Numbered from the stretch's first letter, positions 8,559-63,553 are shown. The stretch: DNA of 64,000 nt from Nitrososphaerota archaeon (GCA_011605725.1 JAAOZP010000004.1:1-64000); one strand, 5' to 3'. Notes: generated from the letters alone by a model not told the origin. Translations and numbers: made by a program.

Positions 8559-8584
8559 CCGACTTGTCAACTTGTCTTAAACGC

Positions 8585-12306: not shown

Positions 12307-12366
12307 TTATTAGGACCTGGCGAGGAACAATTTTATCTTTAACCGTTCTGTACATACATAAGCATA

Positions 12367-13336: not shown

Positions 13337-13432
13337 TTCCTCAAGACCTCTGTTCAGATAGCTTCATCCAAGCGTTTTTAAGATTTCCATGAGTGTTATG
13401 ATGCCTAAATCGCCTGGGAAACCGGGTATAGA

Positions 13433-14728: not shown

Positions 14729-14768
14729 CCGGGAAGTTTTTATCTTTATCCCCTTTTAAGCATCAGGG

Positions 14769-15473
14769 ATGAGACGTGACGTTGGAAGGAGGGAGGCGGG
14801 TTTCTTCAAACCCGCGGAGGTGATAATCGCCTCTGAAGTTAGGCCTGGTGTTAAGCCGAGCGATATCAATGGAGTCTGCACTGAGGCTTTGAGACACGGC
14901 GTCAGGGTCGTCTGTATACCCAGCGTATACCTTGGAGAGGCTGCTGTCTTTGAAAACACTGGCTTAAAGCTGTCTACTATGATATCTTTTCCAACCGGTC
15001 TGGCGCCTGTCGATCTGAAAATGATGGAGATTATGCTCGCTTCTGAGCATGGTGTTGAGGAAATATACTTCTACCCGAATTTGGGAAACTACTTGGACAG
15101 TAGGATCGTAGAATTCGAATCCGAGCTCTCTAGAATTGCGGAGGGGTCTCAGCTAGTCGGCCTGAAAAGCGTTAAACCGGTTGTCGAGATGGATATGGTT
15201 TCGGAGAAACAGCTGAGAGAAATCATCAGTATTTTCAGAACATCTGGTTTCGACACGGTGGTTATCTCATCAGGCTTCGGCTTGAGAAACATGGGTTCTG
15301 AGGAGCTGAGGGTTTTGAACACTGTTGAACAAGATGTTATGATTGAGGCCCACTGCAGGTTGAGGTCTCTACGGGATTTGCAAAGCCTTGTTGAAAACAG
15401 GGTTTGCAAAGTATGTACAGTAGACTATAAGATTGTTTTGGAAGAAGGCTCTGAAAAACGGCTTGAGGAGTAG
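14769..15473 (+). CDS. Deoxyribose-phosphate aldolase-like TIM barrel, catalytic lysines absent
   Basis: VCIPSVY, ISFPTG, KPVVE match the DeoC layout; DTVVISSGF replaces DFVKTSTGF. Confidence 0.65.
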   Translation: MRRDVGRREAGFFKPAEVIIASEVRPGVKPSDINGVCTEALRHGVRVVCIPSVYLGEAAVFENTGLKLSTMISFPTGLAPVDLKMMEIMLASEHGVEEIYFYPNLGNYLDSRIVEFESELSRIAEGSQLVGLKSVKPVVEMDMVSEKQLREIISIFRTSGFDTVVISSGFGLRNMGSEELRVLNTVEQDVMIEAHCRLRSLRDLQSLVENRVCKVCTVDYKIVLEEGSEKRLEE

Positions 15474-15519
15474 TTTTATGGAAAAACATATATTTGGATT
15501 CTAAGGGGTCATCATAGCT

Positions 15520-16692
15520 TTGCCATCTTACAGGATTGCTTTAATGCCCGGCGACGGGATTGGGCCTGAGGTTGTGAGGGAGGCTGTTAAAGTAGGAGGC
15601 GGTCTGCTTGAAGCCATGGGCGTCCAGTTTTCCTTCGAAGAGTTTCCTAATGGTGCTGACCATTATCTTAAAACCGGTGAAACGCTTTCAGACTATACTT
15701 TAAAGAGGTTGAAGGGTTTTGATGCTATTTTCTTCGGGGCTGTTGGAGACCCAAGAGTTAAGCCGGGAGTTCTTGAGAAGGGTATTCTGCTGAGAATGCG
15801 TTTCCATCTTGATCTTTACGTTAACCTTCGTCCAGTCCGGCTTCTTAAAGGTGTTGAAACACCTTTAAAAATACCTGGGGGCAGTAGTGTTGACTTTGTA
15901 GTTATACGTGAAAACACTGAGGATTTCTACGTCGACATGGGTGGGAGGGTGTCTGAAGGATGCTCGAAGGTCTTCGAGTATACTGTTGAAACCGGCGGGG
16001 CCAGAGGAAGCAGATACAGGGTTGAGGTTGAAAGTAAGCACGGCGAGGCTTTTCAAATAGGAGTGATATCGGTTAAGGGTGCTGAAAGAATAATAAGGTA
16101 TGGTTTTGAATATGCTGTTAGAAAGGGCTTGAAACTCATAACCTTCATAGATAAGGCTAACGTGCTTACTGAAGCATACGGTCTGTGGAGAGATGTTGTT
16201 GAGAAAGTAGGCGAGGAGTACAGTGGGAAGGTTAAGAGGGAATTCATGTATGTTGATGCTGCGGCGCTTCACATGGTTTTAAACCCTGGGCGCTTCAAGA
16301 TAATTGTCGCTCCAAACATGTTCGGAGACATTTTAACAGATCTGGGGGCTGCGATCCAGGGTGGTCTGGGTTTCGCGCCGAGTGGAAACATTAATCCCAA
16401 CGGGGTCTCGATGTTTGAGCCCGTGCATGGGAGCGCTCCGGATAAGGCTGGCATGAACATAGCTAACCCTGTTGCAGCAATACTCTCCTTCTCCCTCATG
16501 CTTGAACACTTATGGAGTAGAAGTGGAGATAAACGTCTCCTCGAGGCTTCAAAGATAATTGAGACGGCTGTGGAGAACGTTTTAGCAAGTGGCAGGTGCA
16601 GGACTCCGGATATGGGTGGAGACTCTAAGACGAGCGAAATGGGAGACGCTGTTCTCGAAGAATCTAAACACTTATTGTCAGATGGAAGATGA
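15520..16692 (+). CDS. Isocitrate/isopropylmalate dehydrogenase family protein
   Basis: PGDGIGPEV, YVNLRPV, RENTED, DKANVL, NMFGDILTD, FEPVHGSAPD. Confidence 0.93.
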   Translation: MPSYRIALMPGDGIGPEVVREAVKVGGGLLEAMGVQFSFEEFPNGADHYLKTGETLSDYTLKRLKGFDAIFFGAVGDPRVKPGVLEKGILLRMRFHLDLYVNLRPVRLLKGVETPLKIPGGSSVDFVVIRENTEDFYVDMGGRVSEGCSKVFEYTVETGGARGSRYRVEVESKHGEAFQIGVISVKGAERIIRYGFEYAVRKGLKLITFIDKANVLTEAYGLWRDVVEKVGEEYSGKVKREFMYVDAAALHMVLNPGRFKIIVAPNMFGDILTDLGAAIQGGLGFAPSGNINPNGVSMFEPVHGSAPDKAGMNIANPVAAILSFSLMLEHLWSRSGDKRLLEASKIIETAVENVLASGRCRTPDMGGDSKTSEMGDAVLEESKHLLSDGR

Positions 16693-17804
16693 AAAGTCTG
16701 ATCTTCAAGAAAGACGGGCTTAACAAGCTTAGTGCAAGCTATATTCCTGAAAAGCTTCCCAGCAGAGAAGAGCACCGGCTTGAGATATTCAATACTGTAA
16801 TAGGCTTCATCGAGGGAAAGCTTCCTCTGAAAGCTATTGTTTTAAACGGTCCAAGCGGCTCCGGTAAAACTGTAACTGTAAAGAAGGCTTCCGAGCAGGT
16901 TTTGAATTACTGTAACCAGAAAGGTATTAAGATTGAATACCGCCATTTAAACACTAGGTTCGCCTCTTCAGACTTCACCCTCGCGCAGATGATTGCGCTC
17001 AGCCTAATGCCAAACATACCGGGCAGGGGATACAGCAGTAAGGAGCTCCTGTTCACAATCTTCGACTACCTTGAAAAATCGGGCAAGAGCTTCCTTCTCG
17101 TCTTGGACGATTTCGACAGCTTCCTAAGCGGGGTTAGAAGCAGGTTTTTCACAGATCTTTTAAAAATTTCGGAGGAGTATGAGGGCAGGGTTAAGGTAAT
17201 CCTGATACTCATCGGGATAGAGGATGTTTCCAAGAAGGTTAAAGACTCTTGGGCGACATCCTTCTTCTGGAGGATAGGCAGAAGCTTTAAACCATACAGT
17301 GCTGAAGAAATATCTGTTATACTGAAAGATAGGGTGGAACTCTCTTTTAACGAGAATAGTGTCGACGACTCTCTTATATATTTGATGGGCAGGATGACTG
17401 AAAGATTCGGATATGGTTCGGCTAGATACGGCATCGAGCTTTTGCTTACAAGCGGGCTTAACGCGAGCTATGAGGGTTCTTCCAAGGTTGTTGCCGAGCA
17501 TGTGAGAGAAGCCCAGTATAGGATTGAAAGCATTATTACCCCGGCGGATTTGAAAACACTTTTCTCTCAGGACCCTGAAATACACAGGCTTGTTGAAAGG
17601 CTTATACGTGTTTTCGAGTCTTGCGAGGAGCCTTTCGTAGACTTTAAAACGCTTGAGGAGCATGGTGTGAGAACGAGAGATAGCGGTGTAATGGAGAGGC
17701 TTAAGAGGCTACACTTGGAGGGTCTCCTGGACTACAATCCGTCTCGGAAGGAGCTCGCATTGATAGGGATGCCCCTCCGGCTTCTTCAACAGGCTTTCGA
17801 CTAG
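16689..17804 (+). CDS. cdc6: Cdc6/Orc1-family AAA+ ATPase (divergent)
   Basis: YIPEKLPSRE, GPSGSGKT, LVLDDFD, FKPYSAEEI..ILKDR, GSARYGIELL. Confidence 0.8.
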   Translation: MKSLIFKKDGLNKLSASYIPEKLPSREEHRLEIFNTVIGFIEGKLPLKAIVLNGPSGSGKTVTVKKASEQVLNYCNQKGIKIEYRHLNTRFASSDFTLAQMIALSLMPNIPGRGYSSKELLFTIFDYLEKSGKSFLLVLDDFDSFLSGVRSRFFTDLLKISEEYEGRVKVILILIGIEDVSKKVKDSWATSFFWRIGRSFKPYSAEEISVILKDRVELSFNENSVDDSLIYLMGRMTERFGYGSARYGIELLLTSGLNASYEGSSKVVAEHVREAQYRIESIITPADLKTLFSQDPEIHRLVERLIRVFESCEEPFVDFKTLEEHGVRTRDSGVMERLKRLHLEGLLDYNPSRKELALIGMPLRLLQQAFD

Positions 17805-18441
17805 TCTTCCCTAATCGGGATACTAGCGTTAGAAAAGCTATTGCTATAAGGGTTGCTATAAGCAGATAGTTCAACAGGGTAATGTCTCCCTTGCTTATGC
17901 TTGCTCCAACCTTCTCACCCATATAGCTGTAGAAAAGAGCTCTGGGGATAGTTCCAAGAAGGGTTGCGACGGTGAACGATGCCGATGCTATTCCAGCCAC
18001 CCCTGCAAAATAGGATATTGCGTCGAAGGAAATCCAAGGTATGAATCTGGCTGCGAAAATAATTTTATACCCGTGTTTGGCGAAAAGCTTCTCAACTTTC
18101 TCAAACTGCTCCCTGTTCACCAGCTTCTCCACAAGGGGTTTTCCAAACTTTAATCCTATCGCATAGTTTATCAGGGCACCGCTCATGAGTCCAAGCGTTC
18201 CAACGATTGAAGAAGCTTCAAAGCCGAAGGCTGAGCCGCTCATAATCAGCACGGCTTCAGCAGGTATAACTGCTATGATCGATTGAACCACCATGAGCAT
18301 ATAGAAACCGAGTAATCCTCCTTTCAGCATTACCTCTTGAAGCTGGTTGAAATACTCTGAGAAAACCCTGGGGAGAATGTTAACTATAGCAATAGTTATG
18401 ATCACGATTATTGAAAGCAGCAGCTTAATGTTCAGCTTCAT
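17701..18441 (-). CDS. DedA/VTT (TVP38/TMEM64) family membrane protein
   Basis: IPAEAV, FGFE, ARFIPWISFDAISYFAG, TLLGTIP. Confidence 0.88.
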   Translation of the reverse strand: MKLNIKLLLSIIVIITIAIVNILPRVFSEYFNQLQEVMLKGGLLGFYMLMVVQSIIAVIPAEAVLIMSGSAFGFEASSIVGTLGLMSGALINYAIGLKFGKPLVEKLVNREQFEKVEKLFAKHGYKIIFAARFIPWISFDAISYFAGVAGIASASFTVATLLGTIPRALFYSYMGEKVGASISKGDITLLNYLLIATLIAIAFLTLVSRLGKTSRKPVEEAGGASLSMRAPSETDCSPGDPPSVAS

Positions 18442-18557
18442 TCCAAGCCTCCTTAACCATTGCGTAAAAGCCCTTATTAATGCTTAAGCCGGCTAGGAAA
18501 TATTTAAAAAACTCCTTAAGAGGGACGCTTATTCTAAACCGTGGAGGATGTGACTGG

Positions 18558-19694
18558 TTGAATCCTGAAGCATGTTCAAACAGTGTTTCGATGCTTGACG
18601 ATGTTGAAGCAATCAAGATGATCGATAGGGGAAACATGAGGCGGATGATATCCTCGTTTCCAGCGCTTTTTAAGGAGGCAGTAACACTATCCCGGGGCCT
18701 GTCTCTTCCCAGAGAATACAAGAATGTTAAGGAGATTGTTGTATGCGGAATGGGAGGTTCAGCTATAGTTGGAGACCTTTTCAAAGACCTTTCCCAGAGG
18801 ATGATCCCACTGCATGTCTCGGTAGTCAGAGACTACGATCTGCCTCTGCACGTTGACGAGAGCAGTCTGGTTGTAGCGGTAAGCTACTCCGGCAACACTG
18901 AGGAGACCCTAGAGTCTTTCAGGCAGGCTTACGAGAGAGGGTCCCGCATACTTGCTATTGCTTCCAACGGTCTTCTGGAGAAGGCTTGCTTAAAGCTTAA
19001 AATACCGTTTCTGAGTATTCCGTCAGGATACGCACCTAGGTCGGCGCTCCCACTACTCTTCATACCATTGTTGAAAGTGGCTGAGGAAATAGGTTTCCCT
19101 CTGGTGGATGATCATGAGCTTGCTGAAGCCTACAGGCTTGTTGAAGAATATAATTCTAACCTTATCCCGGAAAGCCCTTTCAACCAGAATCCTGCTAAGC
19201 AGCTGGCTGTTAGGCTGTATGAGAAACTCCCCATCATATACTCCATGGGTCACTTGAAATCCGTAGCACTGCGTTATAAGGATCAGATTAACGAGAACGC
19301 TAAGATGAGAGCCATGTGGGACCAGCTTCCGGAGGCAAACCATAATGAGGTTGAGGCATGGGAGAAGATTGATTTCAAAGAGCTTCTTCACGTTGTTTTC
19401 ATCGACAGCCGTTTCAAAAACCCTTATCTTACTGAAAGCATCAGCCAGCTTGTTTCGAAGATTGAAAGAGAAGGTGTTGGCTTAAGCATTGTTAAACCAC
19501 TTGGTGAAACGATGCTTGAGGAAATGTTTTCAGCCATAGTCTTGGGGGACTGGGTGAGCTACTATCTCGCAATAATGCGAAAGGTTGATCCCGCTCCTGT
19601 CAGACTAATAAGCGAGCTGAAAGAGAAGCATGATGAGAGAACAAGGTATTCTGAAAAGTTTGAAGAATGGTTATGCAAGCTTAGTAGGGCTTAA
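18558..19694 (+). CDS. Bifunctional phosphoglucose/phosphomannose isomerase
   Basis: GMGGSAIVGD, SYSGNTEET, QINENAK, PEANHNE; start inferred from a GGAGG before TTG 18558. Confidence 0.9.
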   Translation: MNPEACSNSVSMLDDVEAIKMIDRGNMRRMISSFPALFKEAVTLSRGLSLPREYKNVKEIVVCGMGGSAIVGDLFKDLSQRMIPLHVSVVRDYDLPLHVDESSLVVAVSYSGNTEETLESFRQAYERGSRILAIASNGLLEKACLKLKIPFLSIPSGYAPRSALPLLFIPLLKVAEEIGFPLVDDHELAEAYRLVEEYNSNLIPESPFNQNPAKQLAVRLYEKLPIIYSMGHLKSVALRYKDQINENAKMRAMWDQLPEANHNEVEAWEKIDFKELLHVVFIDSRFKNPYLTESISQLVSKIEREGVGLSIVKPLGETMLEEMFSAIVLGDWVSYYLAIMRKVDPAPVRLISELKEKHDERTRYSEKFEEWLCKLSRA

Positions 19695-20437
19695 AGGTAT
19701 TTTTTAATACCACTCTTTTCCACGTTCTTTTCACGCGAAAGCATCTTCGTCAACTCGTGCATACTGATCCTTCTAAACTCCATCCTGTTTCTCCTAAGCA
19801 TTCTCTCAGCCTCCTCCGTCACACCCGGGGCCAGAAGAATAATCCTTACACTCGGCCCGAGGCCTCTAGCATACCTTAACAATTGTCTAACAGCTTCTAA
19901 CCCAGCCCTATCCTTCTTTATTTCAACTATTGTTCTACGATTGTTCGCATCGACCCCGATAATGTCAACCACCCCTGTTTTCTCTCTTGCTTCTGAAGAG
20001 GTTACCCTAAAGCCTTCCTCCACAAGCTCGGGATGTTTGCGGAGAATTTCAGAAATCTCCTGCTCGCTCAAATACATTTGAAACTCACCCTTATCTTCAA
20101 GTCTTCCTGTGAAGATGTTTCTCAAGCCATATATTCTTACGATGACTTTCTCAGGCTTCTTAATCCTCTTAACGATGAGAACAATATGATCAGTGCTGAC
20201 GGTGAGCCCAACCTGGTTCGGAGGAGGCTGCCAGTTAACTGGCTCAAGCCCAGAAGGCCTGTGAATCAGGAAGGACGTATCCTCCTTAACGATTACTAGT
20301 CTCTCCCCCTTCTCTAGGAATGATCTTGCTCTTCCAATGTAATCCGCTTCGCAAAGACAGACTAATGCGATGAACTCTTTAGCGCTAACAGCCTTCTTAA
20401 GCTGCTCTGCCTTTTCCTCTAAGCTGGAGTTACACAT
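19691..20437 (-). CDS. nucS: Mismatch-specific endonuclease NucS/EndoMS
   Basis: YIGRARS, EPVNWQPP, VDIIG..IVEIK..AVRQLLRY. Confidence 0.92.
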   Translation of the reverse strand: MCNSSLEEKAEQLKKAVSAKEFIALVCLCEADYIGRARSFLEKGERLVIVKEDTSFLIHRPSGLEPVNWQPPPNQVGLTVSTDHIVLIVKRIKKPEKVIVRIYGLRNIFTGRLEDKGEFQMYLSEQEISEILRKHPELVEEGFRVTSSEAREKTGVVDIIGVDANNRRTIVEIKKDRAGLEAVRQLLRYARGLGPSVRIILLAPGVTEEAERMLRRNRMEFRRISMHELTKMLSREKNVEKSGIKKYL

Positions 20438-20643
20438 TAGCCTTCTAAGCGGCTGACGGGGTTTATTTCTTTTTTCAACATTATGTCGCTGTTCGAATCA
20501 GGGTTTAAACGGTTTTGCAAAGTTTATGTATGAATGCTTTTTAACTGTTTTGTTTCACTGGCGTGAACGGTGAAACTTAATAAACCCCTTTTGAGGAAAT
20601 CTCTCCGGTTGAAAACTGTGGACAGGAGGGGAGATGCTGAGCG

Positions 20644-22911
20644 TTGAACGGTCGGAGGGAAGGTTTTCCAAACGATACTGGAAGAAAGAATGATCAACCC
20701 GATTATGTTTACCTACGTGTCGCTGAGGCTCAGCCCACTGACGTTGGGCGGGGCTACGCCAGGATCGATCCTGAAGTCGCTAAGCTTCTGAATCTTTCGC
20801 CGGGAGACGCTATTGAGATAGTGGGCAGAAGAAAGACTTATGCTCTAGTATGGCCAGCGTCAGCCAAGGATAGGGGCCTCGGTCTAATCAGGATAGACGG
20901 GTACACGAGGGAGAATGTCGGCGTCAGCCTCGACGACAAGGTTAGGGTCAGAAAGGTAACCGCTAGGTATGCGACTACCGTTGTCCTTGCGCATACCGAG
21001 CAGCCTAGAATGGTTAACGGTGAGGAGTTTGTGAAAAGCATAATGATAGGCAGGATAATAAACAGGGGTGATATTATTCCTGTTAGGATAATGGGTAAGA
21101 TTGTTCAACTAGTCGTTGTCTCCTATCAGCCTGCGGCTGAGGCAGTTATAGTGACTGAGGACACTGTGGTCAAGATCAGCGAGAAAATATACCAGATTAA
21201 GAAGCTTCTTCCAAGAGTTACTTACGAAGACATAGGTGGCTTAGAGGAGGCTATTCAGAAGATTAGGGAGATGGTTGAGCTTCCCCTTAGGCATCCTGAG
21301 CTTTTCGACAGACTGGGAATAGAGGCTCCAAAGGGTATTCTTCTCTATGGTCCACCCGGCACCGGTAAGACTCTTCTCGCGAAAGCCGTGGCTAACGAGA
21401 CTAATGCGCACTTCATCAGCATAAGCGGACCTGAAATAATGAGCAAGTATTATGGTGAGAGTGAGCAGAGACTTAGAGAAATATTTAAGGAGGCTGAGGA
21501 GAATGCTCCAAGCATAGTTTTCATAGATGAGCTTGACTCAATAGCGCCTAAAAGAGAGGATGTTACTGGTGAGGTTGAGAAAAGGGTTGTAGCTCAGCTT
21601 CTCTCACTCATGGATGGGCTGCAGACACGTGGGAAGGTTGTTGTAATAGGCTGCACTAATAGGGTTAACGCGATAGATCCTGCCTTACGCAGGCCTGGGA
21701 GGTTCGACAGGGAAATAGAGATAGGTGTACCCGATAAGAAGGCGAGACTAGAGATACTTCAGATCCACGTAAGGGGTATGCCGCTTTCAGAAGACGTTGA
21801 CTTGAAACGGCTGGCTGAGCTGACTCCGGGTTTCGTCGGAGCTGATCTCGCGGCTCTTGCTAAAGAAGCAGCATTAAGATGTTTAAGGGAAGTCCTTCCA
21901 GAGATAGATCTTGAAACCGAGGTCATCCCGATAGAGGTTCTAAGCAAGCTTGTAGTCAGGATGAAGCATTTCATGGATGCTTTGAAGGAGATAGAGCCGT
22001 CTGCTTTGAGGGAGATAATGGTTGAGAGTCCAAATGTTCACTGGGATGATATTGGGGGTCTCGAGGATGTTAAGAGGGAGCTCATAACCTCGATAGAGTG
22101 GCCATTAAGGTTTCCCGAGCTTTTCAAAAAGCTTAACATAAGGCAGCCGAAGGGTATTCTTCTCTATGGTCCACCCGGCACCGGTAAGACTCTTCTCGCG
22201 AAAGCCCTGGCGACTGAGAGCGAGGCCAACTTCATAAGCATCAAGGGTCCGGAACTGCTTTCAAAATGGGTCGGCGAGTCTGAAAGGGGGATTAGAGAAG
22301 TCTTCAGGAAGGCTAGGCAAGTTGCTCCCTGCATAATCTTCTTCGACGAGATTGATTCGATTGCGCCCTTGAGGGGTAGGGATGTGAGCAGTGATGTTAC
22401 TGAAAGGGTTGTCAGCCAGCTTCTAACTGAGATGGACGGTCTGCAGGATCTCAGGGGAGTCATAGTCATAGGCGCGACGAACAGGCCTGATATAATCGAT
22501 CCTGCTCTGTTAAGAGCAGGAAGGTTCGACAAGCTTATAGGCTTAAGCTGGCCGGATAAAGAGACTCGTAAGAAGATATTCCAGATACATTTAAGGGGGA
22601 AGCCTGTTGCTCCAGACGTGAACATCGACGAACTGGCTTCGATGACTGAAGGCTTCTCCGGGGCGGACATAGCTCAGTCATGCAACGATGCTGGGCTCAT
22701 AGCGATAAAAGAATTGCTGGAGATGACGAGCGACGAGGAGAAGGTTATGAGGATGACTGAGAAGCTAGTTATTCAGAAGAGACATTTGATGGAAGCGATA
22801 AGCAAGATAAACATTCCTTCTCCAGAGGAGCGCAGGGCCTACGAGCTCATGATGTCGAAGTTCGCTGGCACAGCGAAATCGACAATAATGGCTTCTCCAA
22901 CCCTTGTTTAG
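20644..22911 (+). CDS. cdc48: CDC48/VCP-type AAA ATPase
   Basis: N-domain, two GPPGTGKT Walker A motifs, FIDELD/FFDEID, RPGRFD/RAGRFD. Confidence 0.96.
21331..21387 (+). repeat. 57-bp exact repeat, copy 1 (cdc48 D1 Walker A)
   Basis: aagggtattcttctctatggtccacccggcaccggtaagactcttctcgcgaaagcc identical to 22150-22206. Confidence 0.9.
22150..22206 (+). repeat. 57-bp exact repeat, copy 2 (cdc48 D2 Walker A)
   Basis: Identical to 21331-21387. Confidence 0.9.
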
Positions 22912-22971
22912 ACAGGCTTAGTAGAGAAAACATTTATTTATTTCAGTCGTAGAGAATCAGTTGAGTAAACC

Positions 22972-23826
22972 ATGTGCGCGAGTGTAAGGTACAGGCCTCC
23001 TGAAACAGCTGAAATAGGTATTTTCGGAGGGACAGGCAACTATGATCCGTCATATCTTCAGGATGCTAAACAGTTTAAAGTATACACGCCTTACGGGCCG
23101 CCGTCAGACCTCGTAACAGTAGGGTGGGTTAAGGATAGGAAGGTTGCCTTCCTACCTAGGCACGGTAGGCATCATACAATACCGCCTTACAAGGTTAACT
23201 ATAGAGCTAACGTCTGGGCTTTCAAAACAATGGGTGTAACGAGAATAATAAGCCCTGCAGCCGTTGGGAGCCTACAACCGGAGTTCATAAAACCCTACGA
23301 GTTCGTTATAATAGATCAGTTTTTCGATAGGACGACGAACAGGAGAAGCCTCTCCTTCTACGAGGGTGGAGTCGTTGGGCATGTGCCATTCAGCGACCCT
23401 GTCTGTCCGGAGCTGAGAAGAATCTTCCTGGATTCAGGCAGAAGGGTACTTCCAAACGTGAAGATCCACCCCACGCCGGAGGAGGAGGCTGAGGGCAAAT
23501 CGTTCACATACGTAACTATTGAGGGCCCAAGGTTTTCAACAAGGGCTGAATCACTCTTCTACAAGAGCCTAGGGTTCTCGGTAGTAGGTATGACAGCCGT
23601 GTCTGAAGCATACTTGGCTAGGGAAGCTGAGATATGTTTTCTCAGCATAGCGCTCATCACGGATACAGACGTGTATGGTCTAATGCCTGTTACAGCTGAA
23701 AGGGTTGCTAAAAGCATGAGGGAGAACGTTGCGAACGTCAATAAGCTTATTTATGAGACAATCCCCATTATACCAAGGGAGAGGAAGTGTGGTTGCGGTA
23801 CTGTGCTGGATGTTTCACTCTATTAG
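22972..23826 (+). CDS. mtnP: 5'-methylthioadenosine phosphorylase
   Basis: GIFGGTG, TPYGPPS, FLPRHG, NYRAN, EGPRFSTRAES, GMT, TDTD. Confidence 0.9.
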   Translation: MCASVRYRPPETAEIGIFGGTGNYDPSYLQDAKQFKVYTPYGPPSDLVTVGWVKDRKVAFLPRHGRHHTIPPYKVNYRANVWAFKTMGVTRIISPAAVGSLQPEFIKPYEFVIIDQFFDRTTNRRSLSFYEGGVVGHVPFSDPVCPELRRIFLDSGRRVLPNVKIHPTPEEEAEGKSFTYVTIEGPRFSTRAESLFYKSLGFSVVGMTAVSEAYLAREAEICFLSIALITDTDVYGLMPVTAERVAKSMRENVANVNKLIYETIPIIPRERKCGCGTVLDVSLY

Positions 23827-23877
23827 AAGACCTTCCAGCGTTAAGAAAGGTCAGTAAACGGGGGGAAACAGATACGG

Positions 23878-24987
23878 GTGTCTAAACGCCTTCCGAAAAC
23901 CATAATCGGCTTCGACCCTGGAACCACGGCTGGACTAGCCGTGTTAAACTTAAATGGGGAGCTGCTTCTCCTTAAGAGTCTAAGACACTGGAGTAGAAGC
24001 AGCATAATTCTTGAAGCTTTAAGCATCGGAGACCCTGTTCTGATTGCAACCGACAGAGCTGAGGCCCCGAGGGCAGTGAGGGAGCTAGCTCAGTCGCTGA
24101 ACTTGGCCGTGTTCGAAACAGGGAAGGAGGAGATGTTCGACAACAAAATCAGCATCATAAACGAATATGCTTCTAAAAGGAATGTCAGAATCGAGGATGA
24201 GCATCAAGCCTCAGCTCTCTACGCAGCGCTTAAAGCCTACAACAGTTTCAAAAACGAATTCAGAAACATTGAGCTGAACGTCGAGAGAAAGATAAGTGAC
24301 TTCAAGGAAGCCCTAGTAGATGAAGTTAAAAGCGATCTTATCAAGGGGATTCCTCCTGAGCGTTCGATAAAAGAGCGGCTTTCTCAAACAGTTGCTCAAA
24401 GCTTTGACGCAAACATTGTGGAGCAGCTTAGGAAGCAGCTTCTCGAGGAGAGGAGGAAGGTTGAAGTTCTTGCACTTAAACTGGAAAGCCTGAGAAACGA
24501 GCTTAGAAAAGCAGAGTCGAAGAAGCCCGGTAAAGAGACTGGTATTAGAAGCGTTGTGAGCTTCACGCCGGAAGCAATCAAGCTGACAAGTCTAAGCCAA
24601 GTTGTTGGGAGGCGGGAGAAGGATTTCAGTGAGCTCCTCCAAGTTGATGTCTTCACAGAGCTGACTTCCAAGAAGGCTAAAAGTGAGGTTAGCAGTACGG
24701 TTGTGGCTGCAGAAACCCTTAAAGGAGATCTGAGGAAGATTTTTAAAGCCCTCTCCTCAAGAGGCGTCAGGATACTTATACTGGATGCTGATAGTATTGA
24801 CGATGAAGCTGTAAAGGAAGCTGCCTACCATGGCCTCCTGCTCTGCGACATTAGAAGCCTGCCTTTGGAGAAGCATGATGAAAAGCTCTACGTGAGGAGG
24901 AGCGACATTAGGGATTTTTTAAACAGGAAGAGGAACCTGCTGACTGAAGCGTTGATTGAAAGGCTGGCTGAGCTTAGCTCAAGATAG
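23878..24987 (+). CDS. DUF460 family protein (RNase H-like N-terminus plus coiled coil)
   Basis: IIGFDPGTTAGLAVLNLNG, PVLIATD, HQASALYAA. Confidence 0.8.
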   Translation: MSKRLPKTIIGFDPGTTAGLAVLNLNGELLLLKSLRHWSRSSIILEALSIGDPVLIATDRAEAPRAVRELAQSLNLAVFETGKEEMFDNKISIINEYASKRNVRIEDEHQASALYAALKAYNSFKNEFRNIELNVERKISDFKEALVDEVKSDLIKGIPPERSIKERLSQTVAQSFDANIVEQLRKQLLEERRKVEVLALKLESLRNELRKAESKKPGKETGIRSVVSFTPEAIKLTSLSQVVGRREKDFSELLQVDVFTELTSKKAKSEVSSTVVAAETLKGDLRKIFKALSSRGVRILILDADSIDDEAVKEAAYHGLLLCDIRSLPLEKHDEKLYVRRSDIRDFLNRKRNLLTEALIERLAELSSR

Positions 24988-27593: not shown

Positions 27594-27605
27594 TAGCGCG
27601 CGCTG
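27594..27605. repeat. GC-linker palindrome (TAGCGCGCGCTG)
   Basis: Intact AGCGCGCGCT core, intergenic. Confidence 0.85.
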
Positions 27606-28985: not shown

Positions 28986-29028
28986 TAGCGCACGTTGAAA
29001 GGCGTGAAAGGCATACTAGCGCGCGCTT
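28986..29028. repeat. Two GC-linker copies (TAGCGCACGTTG 28986-28997; TAGCGCGCGCTT 29017-29028)
   Basis: One decayed and one intact copy 19 bp apart, intergenic. Confidence 0.8.
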
Positions 29029-31723: not shown

Positions 31724-31747
31724 TCGGCGCTTCGCCTTCTATGTGAA

Positions 31748-33049
31748 ATGAAAGAAGCCGAGGGAGAGACATTAGAGTTTAAGAATTCCTTGTCTGATTT
31801 CGACAGTATACTGGCTACAATATCCGCCTTCTCCAACACGAAAGGAGGAAGAATACTTATCGGTGTTAACGACGATGGAAAAGTTACAGGAATCGACATT
31901 GGTAAGAGAACTTTAGAGGAAATTGTGAATAGGATTTCACAAAATACAAATCCAAAAACATATCCTGAGATCAAAATCGAGAGGGTACAGGATAAAAACA
32001 TCATAGAAATCAGGGTTTCAGAACGTAGCGATAAACCTGTTTTCGCTAAGGGAATCGCCTATAAAAGGGTTGGAAGGAACAACGTTAAGATGGATAGGGA
32101 TGAGATCGTAAGCTTGCTCAGGAAAGTTTACGAAATATCATATGAAGATGTTGAAGTCGCAAGCATTGAAGATATTGACTTCGATAAAGTAAGATCCTTC
32201 ATAAATAGGGTCAGGGAAGCAAGATCCAGCTCGATACCTGAAAACGAGACTATTGTTTTGAGAAGCCTCGGATTAGTGGACGGCGAAGCTAGGCTGGCAG
32301 CAATAATTCTATTCGGTAAGAACCCGCAGGCCTTAGCTCCGTGGGCTGTGGTGAAGATCGGCAGGTTCCTAGCTGAAGATGCAAGACCTGTTTTCGAGAA
32401 GGAGATTGCAGGAGACCTTGTAGAGCAGATAGAAAAGAGCTATGCTGAAGTTCTATCATTAATAAGGAAGGAAATAAAAGTAAAGGGGCCCAGAAGAGAA
32501 GAAATCTATGAATATCCTGTCGAAGCAGTCAGAGAACTCATTGTAAATGCTGTGACACATAGGGATTACTCGATTAAAAGCCCAATCTACATAAAGATAT
32601 TTGAAGAAAAGATTTCCATCGAAAACCCAGGTGGACTACCCAAAGGCATAACGGTCGACGAGCTTAAAAAACCGCATAGTTCAATTCTCAGAAACCCTAA
32701 GATAGCAAACGTGCTCTACAACTTGGGGTACATAGAGAAGTGGGGAATAGGAACGTTGGAAGTCATTAAAAAATGTCTGCTTAATGGAAACGGTGAACCC
32801 ATCTTCTACTCCAACGGAGTGTTTAAGGCTGAAGTAAAAAGCAGGTACACGGTGAACATCAGCGATAAGGAAAGGATTGCTGTCGAGTACATAAGGAAAA
32901 AAGGAAAGGCTACGAGGCTGGAGCTTGAAAAAATACTGGGTTTAAAAGAAAGCTCCGTAAGAAAGCTTCTTGAAGAACTCCAACGCAGAGGCCTCGTAGT
33001 GAAAGAAGGAAGGGGAAGGAGAACAAGATACAGGCTTTCAGTTTTCTAA
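31748..33049 (+). CDS. Schlafen/AlbA_2 domain plus HATPase_c_4 plus wHTH protein (RecG-like regulator family)
   Basis: EGETLEFK, ISAFSNTKGGRILIGVNDDG, YKRVG, RELIVNAVTHRDY, NPGG, RNPKIA, EKWGIG. Confidence 0.9.
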   Translation: MKEAEGETLEFKNSLSDFDSILATISAFSNTKGGRILIGVNDDGKVTGIDIGKRTLEEIVNRISQNTNPKTYPEIKIERVQDKNIIEIRVSERSDKPVFAKGIAYKRVGRNNVKMDRDEIVSLLRKVYEISYEDVEVASIEDIDFDKVRSFINRVREARSSSIPENETIVLRSLGLVDGEARLAAIILFGKNPQALAPWAVVKIGRFLAEDARPVFEKEIAGDLVEQIEKSYAEVLSLIRKEIKVKGPRREEIYEYPVEAVRELIVNAVTHRDYSIKSPIYIKIFEEKISIENPGGLPKGITVDELKKPHSSILRNPKIANVLYNLGYIEKWGIGTLEVIKKCLLNGNGEPIFYSNGVFKAEVKSRYTVNISDKERIAVEYIRKKGKATRLELEKILGLKESSVRKLLEELQRRGLVVKEGRGRRTRYRLSVF

Positions 33050-33160
33050 ACTCTCCCCGACAAGTAACTGCTCTGTTAACTTAAGCTCATGGAAGCATCA
33101 CTCCTAATCTTCTGAATCCACAATGGGACTATGTTAAATGCAGAAACACTAATAGCGTAC

Positions 33161-33250
33161 GGCAACAACCGCTGAAGCCTACGGGCACTTCATAAAATAC
33201 AATAACCTCAAGAAAAAATAGCCGGCATCCTAAGTGGCTCAAAGACCCCA
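33161..33250 (+). pseudogene. About 90-bp diverged fragment of the ppsA 5' region, bracketed by GC-linkers
   Basis: gcaacaaccgctgaagcctacgggcacttcataaaatacaataacctcaagaaaaaatagccggcatcctaagtggctcaaagacccc aligns to ppsA about 36162-36251; TAGCGTACG at 33153, AAGCGCGCTA at 33250-33259. Confidence 0.8.
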
Positions 33251-33259
33251 AGCGCGCTA

Positions 33260-33383
33260 TATCTCATCATACTCCTGTACTATCCATATTGTTGCCTTGT
33301 GGACGTAGTCGTTTATCAAGTTCGTAGCATGAATATATGACTCGGCTAGTTTCCTCCTTTCTTTCTCAAAGTTTTCGAACCTC
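33260..33383 (-). mobile_element. tnpB: Internal fragment of tnpB (IS200/IS605 family), bracketed by GC-linkers
   Basis: RGS[K]NFEKERRKLAESYIHATNLINDYVHKATIWIVQEYDEI resembles the TnpB helix preceding the RuvC-II EDL; bounded by 33250-33259 and TAGCACGCGCTT 33384-33395. Confidence 0.65.
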
Positions 33384-33738
33384 TAGCACGCGCTTCTTTT
33401 TCTGAGGTTCCTTATCCATAAGCCACGCTTGCTGTATAGAAGCTTTTCCTCGGGACCGTTTTCTAATAGGCTCTCTTCTCATCTTTCGGTCTGAACATAA
33501 TCTCAGACATTATCCTCGCCCCGGAGTCATTTCTCATTACGAGTATCACGGAACATAGAAGTCTGCTTCCGACTCCGTGAATTCTCCATCTTTGATTCTT
33601 CTCACAAACGTTGAAATGCAGTATCTGTTCTCATCCGCATCATTCTAGTAATTCCCTCCCAAGCTTCTTTATGGATGTTTTTTAAAATTCTGGAATAACA
33701 TTTATATTTTGATGGAAAAATGGTAAATATGGTGAAAA

Positions 33739-33984
33739 ATGGAAAGTAAGGTAGAAGTTAAGAAGGTGGATCCGCAGGGCCGCGTTATTCTGCCCGCTGA
33801 CTGGCGCCAATCCGAAATGAAAGAAAGTAGAGAAATATACATAATCCGAGAGAAAGGGTATTTGAAGATAATCCCGAAGCGTAAAGTTGATTTAACCGAA
33901 TACTTTGATAAAGTTGATTTAAACGTCGAAGCCATTGAGAATTGGAAGAAGTTTGAGAAAAGGCTCTACGGGAGGCGCTCATGA
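33739..33984 (+). CDS. AbrB/MazE-type antitoxin (VapB)
   Basis: KKVDPQGRVILPADWR; ATGA overlap with the PIN gene. Confidence 0.85.
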   Translation: MESKVEVKKVDPQGRVILPADWRQSEMKESREIYIIREKGYLKIIPKRKVDLTEYFDKVDLNVEAIENWKKFEKRLYGRRS

Positions 33985-35786
33985 GGTTCTTAGACGCAAA
34001 CATTTTCATCTACGCCTATTACAAACCGAAGAGGCAGCTCTCCCAAAAAGAGAAGCATATGAAGGAGTATGCCAAGAAGATAATTAGCAATGTATCTCAA
34101 GGAAAAGAGAAGGTGGCAACCACGGTTGTGCATCTTTCGGAGATTGTGAACATCCTCAAGCACGGCATGACCGTGGATGAATTAGCTAAACTCATCACCG
34201 GCTTATTTATGCTGGACAATGTTGAAATATATGGAGTGTCTAAGGAAGACTATTTTGCCGCGGTTGAGTTGAGTAAGGACTTAAAGATTGAGCGCGCGCG
34301 CGCTATCGTGTCCGTTCTCAGCGGGAACAACTCCATTTCTTGGGCAACCCTGAGTAAGTGGAACAGCACGAGCAAATCTTGGGATTACAACATTAAGGAC
34401 TTGAAGTCGAACATGAAGTCAGCACCCGGGTTAAGCTACATGGAGATCTGGGTGGACAAGCAGGACATAGGGTACACCCCTAATGGAATAAACTTCTTCA
34501 TAGAATCGTATGCTGAGGTTGGGGCTATGCTGGAGACGGAGCTGACTTACGTCATAGGTTCCTCGAAGAAGGGAATTACTTTGGACGGGGAACCGGATGA
34601 CTGGGGCACCATAGCCCCGTTGAAGACATTTCCATCAAAGAGGATAAACCCTCCTGAGCTGGAGGCTTCAAGCGTTTACATTGCAAACGATGATAAGAAT
34701 CTCTACTTCAGGTTTGACACGAGGGGAAAGCCCACCACAACAGTCAACGAAGGAGAATTGTACAGAATTACAGAAAGTTACCTTGACACCGATAACAATG
34801 ATAACACTGGATACATAGGGCGTGGTGGAGCAGAATTCAGAGTCTACGCATCCTTCTTTGTTAACGTGTCGAAATACACTCGCGTGCGCTACGAGAAGTA
34901 CACCGGGACGGGGCGTGATTATAGTTGGCAGGAGATTTCTGAATCATGGAACGCTGGGGACTTCAACAGCATCTTCGAATTCAAAATACCTCTCAGCATG
35001 ATTGGAGTAGAGACCGGTAGAACAATCGGCCTCTACATAGATGCGTTCTTGTGCATTTTTTATCGTAATATTCCCCAGCCCGGTCATTTGACGTATCCTC
35101 CGGATACTACTCCACCAGTCACAGCAATAGCTCTGAGCAAACCTAAGCATCAGGTTGGTTCAACAACCTATGTCTCCGGCTCAACGCTTTTCGAGCTCTC
35201 GGCAAGCGATGCTAGTGGAGTTAAGGAGATAAAGTATAGGGTTGACAATGGTCCATGGAATGCCTACACGGCAGGCTTCACGCTGTCAGGGTTCTCTGAC
35301 GGTTCTCACACGATAAGCTATTATAGTGTCGACAATGCTGGAAACACTGAGACCGAGAAAACCCTTACAATAATGCTGGATAAGACTCCTCCAACGATAG
35401 GCGAAGCATCGCCAACCGGAACCATTGGCTCAACATCAGTAACTTTCACGGTTAAGGTCGAGGACTCCGGCTCAGGAGTTAAGGAGGTTAAGCTAATCGT
35501 CGACGGTGCTTCCCAAGGCTTGATGAGCCAAAGCGGAAACACCTACACTAAAACGCTAAGTCTGTCAGAAGGCTCTCACACCTGGAGCATCGAAGCGGTT
35601 GACAACGTGGGAAACACCGCAACCCGAAACTACTCTCTCACATTCTCCACATGGATGAGCCTACTACCCTACCTTATAGCTGCTACCATAGTAATCGTAA
35701 TCATCATAGCCACCGCAGCAATCATGCTTAGGAGGAGACGCGCACCACTACCACCGCCCCCGCCTCCACCACCTCCTCCACCATAA
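33981..35786 (+). CDS. Chimeric ORF: truncated VapC PIN domain (33981-34290) fused in frame via a GC-linker to the C-terminal part of a surface protein (Ig-like domains, TM, poly-Pro)
   Basis: MRFLDANIFIYA..HLSEIVNIL, then ERARAIV encoded by GAGCGCGCGCGCGCTA, then LDGEPDDW, DTTPP..DGSHTISYYSVDNAGN, TM-RRRR-PLPPPP. Confidence 0.8.
   Translation: MRFLDANIFIYAYYKPKRQLSQKEKHMKEYAKKIISNVSQGKEKVATTVVHLSEIVNILKHGMTVDELAKLITGLFMLDNVEIYGVSKEDYFAAVELSKDLKIERARAIVSVLSGNNSISWATLSKWNSTSKSWDYNIKDLKSNMKSAPGLSYMEIWVDKQDIGYTPNGINFFIESYAEVGAMLETELTYVIGSSKKGITLDGEPDDWGTIAPLKTFPSKRINPPELEASSVYIANDDKNLYFRFDTRGKPTTTVNEGELYRITESYLDTDNNDNTGYIGRGGAEFRVYASFFVNVSKYTRVRYEKYTGTGRDYSWQEISESWNAGDFNSIFEFKIPLSMIGVETGRTIGLYIDAFLCIFYRNIPQPGHLTYPPDTTPPVTAIALSKPKHQVGSTTYVSGSTLFELSASDASGVKEIKYRVDNGPWNAYTAGFTLSGFSDGSHTISYYSVDNAGNTETEKTLTIMLDKTPPTIGEASPTGTIGSTSVTFTVKVEDSGSGVKEVKLIVDGASQGLMSQSGNTYTKTLSLSEGSHTWSIEAVDNVGNTATRNYSLTFSTWMSLLPYLIAATIVIVIIIATAAIMLRRRRAPLPPPPPPPPPPP
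34290..34305. repeat. GC-linker palindrome, expanded (GC)6, at the gene-fusion junction
   Basis: GAGCGCGCGCGCGCTA. Confidence 0.85.
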
Positions 35787-36020: not shown

Positions 36021-38429
36021 ATGACCCAAGGAGAAAAATCCAAGAAATACGTACTCTGGTTCAACGAAATAGGCATAGAAGACGTACCCCTAGTAGGAGG
36101 AAAATCAGCAAGCCTAGGAGAAATGCTCAGGAAAACAGGCGTACCCGTGCCAAACGGCTTCGCAACCACCGCTGAAGCATACCGCTACTTCATAAAATAC
36201 AACAACCTCGAGAAGAAGATAGCCGACATACTAAGCGAGCTGAAAGACCCCAACGACACCAAAACACTGCAAAACGTAGGAGCAAGAATCAGGAAAACAA
36301 TCATGGAGGCAAAAATGCCCCCGGAAATAGAGGAGGAAATCAAAAAATACTACGCGCAGCTGGAGAAAGAAGTCAACCAGAAAAACCCGTTCGTAGCAGT
36401 AAGATCATCAGCAACAGCCGAAGACCTCCCAGACGCAAGCTTCGCAGGACAACAAGAAACATACCTAAACGTGTCAACACCCGAACAAGTCGTAGACAAG
36501 GTTAAAGAATGCTACTCAAGCCTCTTCACAGACAGAGCAATATTCTACAGAGTCCAAAAAGGATTCGACCACATGAAAGTCGCACTATCCGCAGCAGTCC
36601 AGCTAATGGTCTACTCAAAAGCCTCAGGAGTAATGTTCACCCTCGACGTAAGCAACGGAGACAGAAGCGTAGTAATGATAGAAGCAGGATACGGCCTCGG
36701 CGAATACGTCGTCCAAGGAAAAATCACGCCAGACGACTACTACGTTAGAAAAACCGACCTGCAAATCGTAAAGAAAGTCGTATCAACCAAAAAAGTAATG
36801 CTCGTCAGAAAACCAGGAGGAGGAACAGAAGAAAAAGAAGTCCCGCCAGAACTGCAAGACAAGCAAATACTCACCGACCAACAGATAAAAGAACTAGCAG
36901 CATACGCAATAGAAATCGAAAACCACTATGGTAAACCAATGGACATCGAATGGGCACTAGACGAAAGAGACAACAGACTCTACATACTCCAAGCAAGACC
37001 AGAAACAGTATGGGCACTCAAAAAACCCCAGGAGGAAAAAACAGAAACAGTAGCAGTAACCAAAGAGAAAGAAGTAATATGCCAAGGACTACCAGCATCA
37101 CCAGGACTAGCCGTTGGAAAGGCACATATAATTCTAAGCGTCGATAAATTAGACACATTCAAGCCAGGAGAAATACTAGTAACAATAATGACGGCGCCCG
37201 AGTGGGTTCCGGCCATGCGTAAGGCGGCTGCAATAGTTTGCGATTCAGGCGGCATGACTGCACACGCGGCCATAGTCTCACGAGAACTCGGAATCCCATG
37301 CATCGTCGGAACCGCGTCGAAAGGAAAACCTGCAACCGAAGCAATCAAGGATGGAGAAATCATAACGGTTGACGCGAAGCTGGGAGTCGTATACAGGGGA
37401 GCTTTAGCAGAAGTCGTAGAGAAAAAGGAGGAGAAGAAGGTTGAAGCCGTCGCAGTTGCAGCAGAATCATACCCGGTGACGGGAACAAAGATTTACGTTA
37501 ATCTAGGTGAACCCGAGTTAGCGGAAAAAGTCGCTTCACTACCTGTTGACGGCGTCGGACTAATGAGGCTCGAGTTCACGTACGCTGCCGAAGTAGGCGA
37601 GCACCCGCTACACTTAATCGAAACCGGTCACCCTGAGAAGGTTGTCGACAAGCTTGCCGAGGGGATGAGAAAAGTCTGCGCAGCGTTCTATCCTCGTCCC
37701 GTCGTGGTTCGTCTCGTCGACTTCAAGAGCAGCGAGTATAGAGACTTGAAAGGCGGGGAAAAATATGAGCCTGAGGAGCCCTCTGCGCTATTAGGCTGGA
37801 GAGGAGCATCGAGATATTACGATCCTAAGTATCTGCCTGCCTTCAGGCTTGAGCTCAGAGCTATAAAGAAGGTTCGCGACGAGTATGGGTTGAAGAACCT
37901 GTGGGTCATGATTCCGTTCTGCAGGACGATAAGCGAGATTGAGAAGGTCGTCGCAATCATGAAAGAGGAGGGACTTGAGCGCGGACCAGACTTCAAACTG
38001 TGGGTCATGGCTGAGATACCTTCAAACGTCTTGATAGCTGACAAGTTCAATAGATATATAGATGGGTATTCGATTGGTTCGAATGATTTAACTATGTTAA
38101 TACTTGGTGCAGACAGGGATAATGAGACTGTGGCGAAAATCTTCGACGAGAGGGACCTTGCTGTTAAAAGAGCAATTAAATATTTAATTAAAATAGCGCA
38201 TCGCGACGGCAAGACTGTTTCAATATGTGGACAGGCTCCATCAGTATATCCTGAGTTCACCGAGTTTCTTGTTAGAGCAGGCATTGACTCCGTGTCTATT
38301 AATCCTGATGCTGCAGTGTTCACTAGGAAGCTTGTTGCATCTATTGAGCAGAGGATAATGCTCGAGAAGGCTCTCGGCAAAGTTAAGGTTGACCCTGACT
38401 GGGACCTGCCTGACCCAGACGAAGAGTAA
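36021..38429 (+). CDS. ppsA: Phosphoenolpyruvate synthase
   Basis: VGGKSASLGE, AVRSSATAED, GGMTAHAAIVSRELG (phospho-His), GVGLMRLE, SIGSNDLT, ICGQ. Confidence 0.96.
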   Translation: MTQGEKSKKYVLWFNEIGIEDVPLVGGKSASLGEMLRKTGVPVPNGFATTAEAYRYFIKYNNLEKKIADILSELKDPNDTKTLQNVGARIRKTIMEAKMPPEIEEEIKKYYAQLEKEVNQKNPFVAVRSSATAEDLPDASFAGQQETYLNVSTPEQVVDKVKECYSSLFTDRAIFYRVQKGFDHMKVALSAAVQLMVYSKASGVMFTLDVSNGDRSVVMIEAGYGLGEYVVQGKITPDDYYVRKTDLQIVKKVVSTKKVMLVRKPGGGTEEKEVPPELQDKQILTDQQIKELAAYAIEIENHYGKPMDIEWALDERDNRLYILQARPETVWALKKPQEEKTETVAVTKEKEVICQGLPASPGLAVGKAHIILSVDKLDTFKPGEILVTIMTAPEWVPAMRKAAAIVCDSGGMTAHAAIVSRELGIPCIVGTASKGKPATEAIKDGEIITVDAKLGVVYRGALAEVVEKKEEKKVEAVAVAAESYPVTGTKIYVNLGEPELAEKVASLPVDGVGLMRLEFTYAAEVGEHPLHLIETGHPEKVVDKLAEGMRKVCAAFYPRPVVVRLVDFKSSEYRDLKGGEKYEPEEPSALLGWRGASRYYDPKYLPAFRLELRAIKKVRDEYGLKNLWVMIPFCRTISEIEKVVAIMKEEGLERGPDFKLWVMAEIPSNVLIADKFNRYIDGYSIGSNDLTMLILGADRDNETVAKIFDERDLAVKRAIKYLIKIAHRDGKTVSICGQAPSVYPEFTEFLVRAGIDSVSINPDAAVFTRKLVASIEQRIMLEKALGKVKVDPDWDLPDPDEE

Positions 38430-38466
38430 GGTTTCTAGTTCCCTTTTCTAACTTTTGTATTTTTCA
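38430..38466 (+). terminator. T-rich tract after ppsA (archaeal-type terminator candidate)
   Basis: gtttctagttcccttttctaacttttgtatttttc directly after the stop. Confidence 0.4.
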
Positions 38467-38490
38467 CTGTCCCCTTATTGTTAAAACTGA

Positions 38491-38504
38491 TTAGCGCGCG
38501 CTAA
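38491..38504. repeat. GC-linker, perfect 14-bp palindrome TTAGCGCGCGCTAA
   Basis: Direct repeats CTGATTAG at 38487-38494 (overlapping the palindrome) and 38506-38513. Confidence 0.88.
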
Positions 38505-59680: not shown

Positions 59681-59818
59681 AGAGCAGGCATTAAGCGGCG
59701 CTGCAGTCTTCACTCGTAAGCTTGTTGCAAGCGTCGAACAGAGGATTATGCTTGAGAAAGCCCTTGGCCAGGTTAAAACCGATCCCGACTGGGACCTGCC
59801 TACCCTGACGAAGAGTAG
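59681..59818 (+). pseudogene. Diverged remnant of the ppsA 3' end
   Basis: Encodes RAGI..AAVFTRKLVASVEQRIMLEKALGQVKTDPDWDLP-PDEE*, matching ppsA about 38274-38429 with mostly synonymous changes. Confidence 0.88.
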
Positions 59819-63314: not shown

Positions 63315-63553
63315 GGCGCGCTCTTCCTTTTCCGGAAAGAGGCGAAACCCCTTGCTTCATCTAATAGCTTTCTCCTCAAGCGCGCGCTAACATTACTTTT
63401 TCGTATAGTTTCTCCTCCATTTAACATTGGAAATCAGTAATTACTGCTAATGTTTTCCAGTGCTTTTTCTATAAAAACATACTACGTTTAACAAGTATGG
63501 TGTATAAAAAGGAGTTTGAAGATGTTGTGTTTAGATATCAGTAGCGCGTGCTA
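63315..63553. repeat. Three GC-linkers: GGCGCGCTC (63315-63323), AAGCGCGCGCTA (63378-63389), TAGCGCGTGCTA (63542-63553)
   Basis: One intact copy and two variants. Confidence 0.78.

Follow-up and report, generated by a model that had tools for sequence, protein, structure and literature searches.

What joined an archaeal toxin gene in frame to the gene of an extracellular-type protein, exactly at a run of alternating G and C? The question is raised by positions 33981-35786 of a 64,000-nucleotide stretch (GCA_011605725.1, JAAOZP010000004.1:1-64000; the whole stretch is hereafter called the window) from the genome of an uncultured hot-spring Nitrososphaerota archaeon, a 2.23-Mb draft in 20 contigs (G000). 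There, one open reading frame (ORF) begins as vapC, the PIN-domain toxin gene of a vapBC pair, passes through (GC)6 and ends as a surface protein with Ig-like domains. A preliminary description, made from the sequence alone, had taken the run for a breakpoint scar inside coding DNA and not for a transcription-factor site, and proposed that intact homologues of each half would extend past the junction and lack the run. Through sequence comparison, we found that both parents are unbroken in relatives and contain no run; because the intact homologues of both halves pass the junction without it, the run is a junction scar and not a pre-existing binding site. We put at roughly 80% the probability that a loss of about 540 bp was rejoined via written filler, that the filler is an end-joining-type scar present throughout the genome, and that the chimera is a by-product of it.

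The unbroken state was found in several relatives. In a genome of the same genus (G002), vapB, vapC, 112 bp, the gene of a 496-aa surface protein with an N-terminal signal peptide (MNGLRIFLSLALIIILQ...GQPQGY) and the phosphoenolpyruvate synthase gene (pps) follow one another as separate genes. The vapC orthologue of this genome (L012:642-1067; G002:C21) contains a premature TAA at codon 11, an independent inactivation of the toxin in a second genome. On the left side of the junction, blastn homology with the vapBC loci of five relatives ended at 34291 in 5/5, and all five (L036, L052, L035, G002 and G013) read ...AAGATTGA|CCCAAACGAT across the breakpoint. L036 and L052 showed 98.6-99% identity with the window over 3.2-3.6 kb up to 34291, and past it they run on via CCCAAACGAT into an intact vapC. 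On the right side, L034 and L035 aligned from 34305, and L034, L035 and L036 read ...GACTACxT|CATCG across the breakpoint. At protein level, P0001 aligned from ORF residue 109, the first after ERARA, was identical for 222 residues, and had 59 extra residues before the join (...GLGLDYI|IVSVLSG). No GC run was found at the breakpoints in the unbroken relatives (five vapC and four surface-gene sequences).

The junction itself reads AAG ATT GA|GCGCGCGCGCGC|T ATC GTG, in which the alternating run occupies 34292-34303 and the A on the left is ancestral (TTGA|CCC). In the 601-aa product the corresponding peptide is ...DLKIERARAIVSVLSG..., where KIERARAIVSV spans the join and ERARA comes from (GC)6. 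The (GC)5 word GCGCGCGCGC is expected 0.01 times per window; it has 3 matches (overlapping or separate), a number attained in 0/100 dinucleotide shuffles. The missing DNA, about 540 bp (539 in L036 coordinates, 544 in those of L035), extends from codon 104 of vapC into the surface gene as far as about codon 107, and 12 bp found in neither parent stands in its place. The alignments thus demonstrate, at the level of sequence, an ancestral order of vapB, vapC (141 aa), about 110 bp, a surface gene with signal peptide and pps, and the replacement of about 540 bp of it by a 12-bp (GC)6 joined in frame.

The same mark was found all over the genome. The octamer GCGCGCGC occurred in 229 copies in the draft against about 17 expected from composition, with 3-27 copies for each of the other GC octamers. 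Its context is tA(GC)nTa, with A at -1 in 130/153 and T at +1 in 129/153. Nothing is conserved past 12 bp and there is no consensus beyond tA..Ta; therefore the run is not the end of a longer repeat. Run length was 8 in 131 of 201 cases, 9 in 35, 10 in 31, 11 in 1, 12 in 2 and 16 in 1, which places the run at the fusion junction (12) among the three longest. Run-rich islands were observed at 27-64 kb of the window, C4:179-207 kb, C1:24-35 kb, C9:60-73 kb and C20:27-38 kb. The runs are mainly intergenic by our crude ORF calls, on which the genome-wide ORF statistics rest: 51/201 fall within ORFs of at least 100 aa, though such ORFs make up 85% of the genome, and 19/201 are 30 or more codons away from the nearest end of an ORF. 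Literature searches, incomplete in coverage, returned primers and unrelated work only, and no description of the motif or of a constant self-pairing filler at DNA joins.

Several clean events show what is written at such a site. L036 reads ...aaaaattA(GC)5tcgtcg where the 97%-identical L035 reads ...aaaaattTCTtcgtcg, so that 3 nt were swapped for 11, and 2 nt were replaced at the scar at G002 C27:83219. In L049 and L052, from two other samples, the same surface gene contains two further scars at other positions, one of them equivalent to window 35428, and each removes or replaces more than 1 kb relative to L036. At the position of the single surface gene of the window, L036 has a tandem pair of paralogues. 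Among 29 non-shared junction sides, A adjoined the run in 22, being ancestral in 11 and new in 11; a base other than A beside the run was always ancestral, and the parental sequence matched the run by 0 nt in 19/29. What is written therefore comprises the flanking A/T as well, and microhomology is hardly needed for joining, if at all.

The runs also coincide with the points at which homology between genomes breaks off. Window positions 4000-23999 are collinear with three genomes (G002, G007 and G016) across all 20 kb and contain no run, and from 27.5 kb on the homology is patchy. Compared with G002, homology ends at 27594, 29015 and 34291, and runs are located at 27596, 29019 and 34292. At about 28987 lies the remnant of an older copy (AGCGCACGT), decayed here but intact in G002. 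The segment 62541-63389, bounded on the right by a scar, has counterparts at C7:380996-381837 (a paralogue, 89% identity) and in G002:C43 (a homologue). We compared 411 kb of G002 with G000, using as control the sites shifted locally by 40-800 bp, since uniform-random placement is too lenient where sites and repeats share islands. Ends of high-scoring segment pairs (HSPs) lay within 3 bp of a run in either genome in 17/148 cases, against a mean of 0.62 and a maximum of 3 in the shifted control. Homology was confined to one flank in 19/34 runs of G002, where it often reached the run itself (miss 0-5 nt); two runs were common to G000 but differed by point mutation, and are therefore old scars. 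In the self-comparison of G000, 12 HSP ends lay within 3 bp of a run against 2.0 in the same type of control. Judged by these alignments, the fusion junction belongs to a mark spread through the genome, which borders deletions, replacements and inserted fragments.

How might such a mark arise? We suppose that one or two double-strand breaks would arise, that a short self-complementary tail, A-GCGC..., would be written onto each 3' end, and that the two tails would pair, after which the gap would be filled and the ends ligated in an end-joining-type process. The pairing of tails is suggested by a filler that is constant, self-complementary, in neither parent, without flanking arms and decaying by point mutation, and by its presence not only at deletions but also where a break lost almost nothing and at either side of segments that were inserted or replaced. 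Site-specific recombination of an integron-like or cassette type, deleting the DNA between tA(GC)4Ta sites that already stood in vapC and the surface gene, would agree with sites that are palindromic, mostly intergenic, about one per gene or gene block in islands and concentrated in variable regions. However, neither parental breakpoint contains a site in the unbroken relatives, some sites replace merely 2-3 nt in otherwise continuous sequence, and the run varies in length from 8 to 16 without conserved flanking or attC-like arms. This explanation is improbable in general, and for the present junction it is largely refuted.

Even less credit can be given to an excision footprint of a TA-targeting cut-and-paste element (IS630/Tc1-like), in which the sequence would be read as TA + GCGC|GCGC + TA. 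A perfect palindrome with tA...Ta flanks does resemble Tc1/mariner footprints, but excision would not take 540 bp of host DNA and yet keep the footprint. The flanks are often unrelated, as the one-sided sites (19/34) indicate, the T of TA is present in about 50%, and we found no repeated element with GCGC termini and no consensus beyond 2 nt. An assembly or binning artefact, with the contig chimeric at a low-complexity GC run, might be suspected in a draft of 20 contigs and is very improbable: the genes behind the two halves adjoin each other in four independent assemblies, with about 540 bp missing here, and 12 bp is too short to mis-join assemblies. Moreover, like scars occur in metagenomes that were assembled independently from several samples (L035, L036, L047 and L049/L052), and some scars are common to genomes at orthologous positions, with point mutations.

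Another explanation is that the chimera was selected for a function, or that the palindrome is regulatory, the run being an operator or a designed linker and PIN-Ig a real protein family. It has in its favour a frame open over 601 codons and coupled to vapB. The vapB stop and the start of the fusion ORF overlap via ATGA (4 bp), the arrangement of a VapC with its cognate antitoxin; the 81-aa vapB-like ORF matched Pfam MazE_antitoxin (E 0.001) and MraZ (E 0.002), both under cut-off. Neither half of the product is complete, however. Residues 3-102 of the PIN half correspond to positions 2-88 of 120 in Pfam PIN (PF01850) with 17.7 bits, short of the gathering cut-off of 23.6, and an intact VapC orthologue (141 aa; L002:1501-1923) scored 50.5 bits over profile positions 14-118. 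By alignment position the acidic D5 and E54 are retained, so the full set of four acidic residues is not present. Codon 104 and all that follows, the last third of the domain, are gone; in the alignment with intact orthologues this includes the NDAL and FDEDF segments, which we take to carry the third and fourth PIN acidic residues. In this the PIN half ends, as had been noticed from the sequence, at about 103 aa and before its last acidic residues.

The surface half matched Big_7 (E 1.3e-10) and Big_13 (E 3.2e-10) and contains two Ig-like domains, followed by a hydrophobic C-terminal segment, WMSLLPYLIAATIVIVIIIATAAIML (a transmembrane helix), RRRR and a poly-Pro tail, the composition of an archaeal surface protein with Ig domains and a C-terminal membrane anchor. 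Intact homologues begin with MNxLRIFxxxALIII..GQPQGY, a signal peptide; the window ORF joins them at about residue 108 and has the PIN fragment instead, which agrees with the preliminary remark that the frame continues into an extracellular-type protein without signal peptide. The N-terminal domain is an internal duplication (..LYF..D...DTD.N..TG.. module), seen in the alignment of ORF residues 227-282 with P0001 residues 1-53 (28.5 bits). With the signal peptide and about 107 residues of this first extracellular domain, the first of the two repeats was deleted, and the second half of the domain is kept.

No homologue with PIN-Ig architecture was found. A search of 5.8 billion proteins gave 336 significant matches, none of which covers more than 85% of the query or carries PIN; in 41 related genomes the PIN half, short partial matches aside, always lay in a frame of 139-158 aa and the surface half was encoded separately from it, and a scan of species genomes again gave no fused PIN+Ig homologue. 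The finding that would have spoken against a scar, full-length PIN-Ig homologues with ERARA in diverse taxa, was thus absent from the 336 matches and the 41 genomes. The intact VapC found no match in a PDB sequence search, and no known RNA family was found in the Rfam scan of the window. The event is recent, since the left flank is about 1.3% diverged from unbroken relatives and the right protein is identical to P0001 over 222 residues; therefore the open frame of 601 codons says little. The chance of an in-frame join is one in three. We judge a selected chimera or regulatory palindrome very improbable also. Translational coupling to vapB predicts that the fusion ORF is probably expressed, and the missing signal peptide suggests that the surface half could not be exported by the usual route. 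With a PIN half short of the segments of its last acidic residues and a surface half with a shortened first domain and no export signal, the chimera probably arose recently, as a by-product devoid of function. The preliminary view that the process can create chimeric proteins holds only so far as a chimeric ORF was made here, and scars deep within ORFs are rare (19/201). Finally, a Z-DNA-induced deletion is ruled out by parents without the run, a hairpin-telomere fusion by flanks that are not inverted repeats, and a scaffolding linker by runs that occur in independent assemblies and decay by point mutation.

Table 1. Coordinates of the fusion locus, of neighbouring scars and of pps 3' copies (window positions unless a contig is named)
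Feature	Position	Strand	Basis or remark
vapB-like antitoxin gene (AbrB/MazE fold, 81 aa), intact	33739..33984	+	ORF list, Pfam, same 81-aa gene in G002
vapC 5' part (PIN residues 1-103 and 2 bases of codon 104)	33981..34291	+	Homology, vapC of five relatives
(GC)6 filler, translated (E)RARA, missing from all unbroken relatives on either side	34292..34303		Sequence, comparison
Surface-protein gene, lacking what precedes about codon 108 in its intact form	34304..35786	+	blastn, P0001, Pfam, alignment
Chimeric ORF, whole, 601 aa	33981..35786	+	ORF list
A(GC)4T scar	27596..27603		G002:C27 homology stops at 27594 and resumes at 27684; G002 has 1.5 kb there
A(GC)4T scar	29019..29026		End of G002:C27 synteny (homology ends at 29015)
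A(GC)4T scar just past pps	38494..38501		Homology to all relatives stops at about 38434; pps 3' copies elsewhere end here
A(GC)4T scar	63380..63387		Right end of segment 62541-63389
A(GC)nT scars around the surface-gene locus, hot-spring metagenome contigs	L049:539-546, 1978-1987; L052:4138-4145
A(GC)nT scars around the surface-gene locus, hot-spring metagenome contigs	L036:6541-6550; L035:1701, 2306, 5138
pps 3' copies, window	38233-38495, 59700-59826		The first ends at scar 38494
pps 3' copies, G000 C4	69735-69973, 70829-71034, 195579-195662, 201862-201960
pps 3' copies, G000 C4	204789-204910, 211104-211358, 212157-212280

The surroundings of the locus contain further rearranged pieces (Table 1). 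The last 200 bp or so of pps, together with about 60 bp downstream, has eight further partial copies with 75-90% identity, all in scar-rich parts of C4; they may go back to the capture of fragments, or to duplication of the attachment sites used by elements that integrate at the 3' end of pps. Upstream of vapB lies a 92-bp piece of coding sequence from the 5' region of pps (33162-33251, matching 36162-36253), which stops at a short AGCGCGCT (33249-33256) and is shared with L036, L052 and G002. Window positions 31728-33431 form a 1.7-kb insertion relative to G002, which has 10 bp there. The insertion is common to L036 and L052 and carries a 433-aa Schlafen AlbA_2 + HATPase_c_4 + winged helix-turn-helix gene. 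Decayed copies of the motif, AGCACGCGCT, were found at about 31412 and 33384.

What could write the filler? The best candidate, by co-occurrence within the genus only, is a small primase-like protein together with a second RadA and possibly a small structured RNA. This protein, mini-PriS (292 aa, C7:378918-379793), is PriS-like, with DxD, SGxRGFHIH and a zinc knuckle (PF01896, 31.5 bits), and its gene overlaps a second radA. It was found in G000, G002, G006, G007, G008 (as a fragment), G012 and G016, which have 6-118 copies of AGCGCGCGCT each, and it was not found in nine genomes of the same genus with 0-3 copies. An RNA directly downstream of the intact mini-PriS gene on C7 was looked for and is not there; a HEPN-nucleotidyltransferase (MNT) toxin-antitoxin pair is found instead, 49 nt past mini-PriS (G000:C7:379845-380751; L054:2032-2938). 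The pair directly follows mini-PriS in G000 and G002, and the downstream region differs in other genomes. An element of about 88 nt, R1, follows degraded copies of the mini-PriS gene (G000:C12:18844-18931) and is the only copy in the genome. The region around it (G000:C12:18265-18931; L064/L073) is a mosaic starting from a scar, with a radA fragment, two mini-PriS fragments and R1. The RNA has a 9-bp helix with three compensatory pairs, and its covariance model gave matches in this genus only, in a sample of 151 genomes of the phylum. AGCGCU, the supposed template, is present in the copies of G000, G002 and G016. We might speculate, tentatively and as an unlikely case, that these parts form a break-joining system in which mini-PriS, with the RadA paralogue, copies its own RNA template and writes the A(GC)nT linker onto ends. 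If true, a templated mini-PriS would be a telomerase-like enzyme built from a primase that glues any two ends, and such a system would drive deletion, fragment capture and occasional in-frame gene fusions.

Several points weigh against the end-joining account or against this candidate for its writer. The junction rests on one assembly. Its flanks differ in their nearest relatives: L036 is 98.7% identical to the window in the left flank and 83% in the right, and the nearest nucleotide relative of the right flank, L034, reaches 88%, far less alike than that of the left. A join of DNA from two sources may therefore have taken place and is not told apart from a simple deletion, which the conserved gene order favours. 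Microhomology is weak (1 nt in 11/22, run-match 0 in 19/29), unlike classical microhomology-mediated end joining (MMEJ), which has parental microhomology and no constant filler; here the filler is constant. As for the writer, neither mini-PriS nor R1 was found in G009, which has 16 motif copies, and R1 is present in G010 with 3 motif copies, where its co-occurrence fails. AGCGCU coincides in part with the stop codon of the primase gene and falls within predicted helix 1 (P1), which shows no covariation; it is replaced by GGGCU in G006 and GUGCU in G010. The motif AGCGCGCGCT is enriched 10-35-fold over its reversed-pattern control in unrelated genomes of other families (G105 22 vs 0, G142 30 vs 0, G389 35 vs 1, G395 14 vs 1 and G363 10 vs 1), and in G105 the sites are partly clustered; in these five genomes neither mini-PriS, searched with a single sequence or a profile, nor R1 was found, and the primase search in other families gave just canonical PriS and one degraded fragment. 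The co-occurrence within the genus is also not independent, the genomes being kin.

The nearest described activity is that of the replicative primase PriSL(X) of Saccharolobus islandicus, which repairs double-strand breaks by MMEJ: it acts as a terminal transferase, anneals strands and extends them, and the repaired sites bear small insertions and deletions (PMC12019639). The junctions here likewise resemble rejoined breaks, and the candidate enzyme is an archaeo-eukaryotic primase of PriS type. However, the published junctions have no fixed filler, whereas ours have a constant self-complementary A(GC)nT with minimal microhomology, and the candidate is an accessory 292-aa PriS-like protein encoded beside a second RadA gene and not the replicative PriSL. 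Fillers of Pol theta end joining and N-nucleotides of non-homologous end joining (NHEJ) vary by junction, being copied from nearby or random. They share with the present filler extra nucleotides that are in neither parent and stand exactly at deletion junctions, but here the same palindrome recurs about 200 times.

Addition of a fixed short sequence from an internal RNA template is known from the healing of breaks by telomerase and from interstitial telomeric repeats, and the bacterial DRT10 makes tandem repeats with a reverse transcriptase and a non-coding RNA (bioRxiv 10.1101/2025.10.16.682844). A small structured RNA with AGCGCU beside a hairpin co-occurs with scars in the present genus; in contrast to those systems there is no reverse transcriptase, two ends are joined instead of one being capped, and the template role of the RNA is only proposed. 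The upstream gene and the first 103 residues form a typical archaeal vapB-vapC pair with a 4-bp overlap, but unlike in VapBC modules, whose toxins are PIN-domain RNases, the toxin is cut before the last third of PIN and fused to an unrelated protein. The HIP1 palindrome of cyanobacteria is spread over coding and non-coding DNA and conserved in place. Both it and the present mark are short, GC-rich and strongly over-represented in the genome, but the mark described here clusters in variable islands, avoids ORF interiors and sits at homology breakpoints.

The fusion is of value because near-identical unbroken copies of both parents exist, and comparison with them shows at single-base level that the run was added when the ends were joined. 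Among the roughly 200 copies of this undescribed joining scar in the genome, it ranks with the clearest. If found, a writer enzyme could serve as a tool for joining DNA ends. A constant self-pairing filler would mean that archaea have a new way of repairing double-strand breaks and shuffling their genomes, and the scars would form a readable record of past breaks. In-frame joins such as that of PIN and surface protein would be a route by which new chimeric ORFs can arise.

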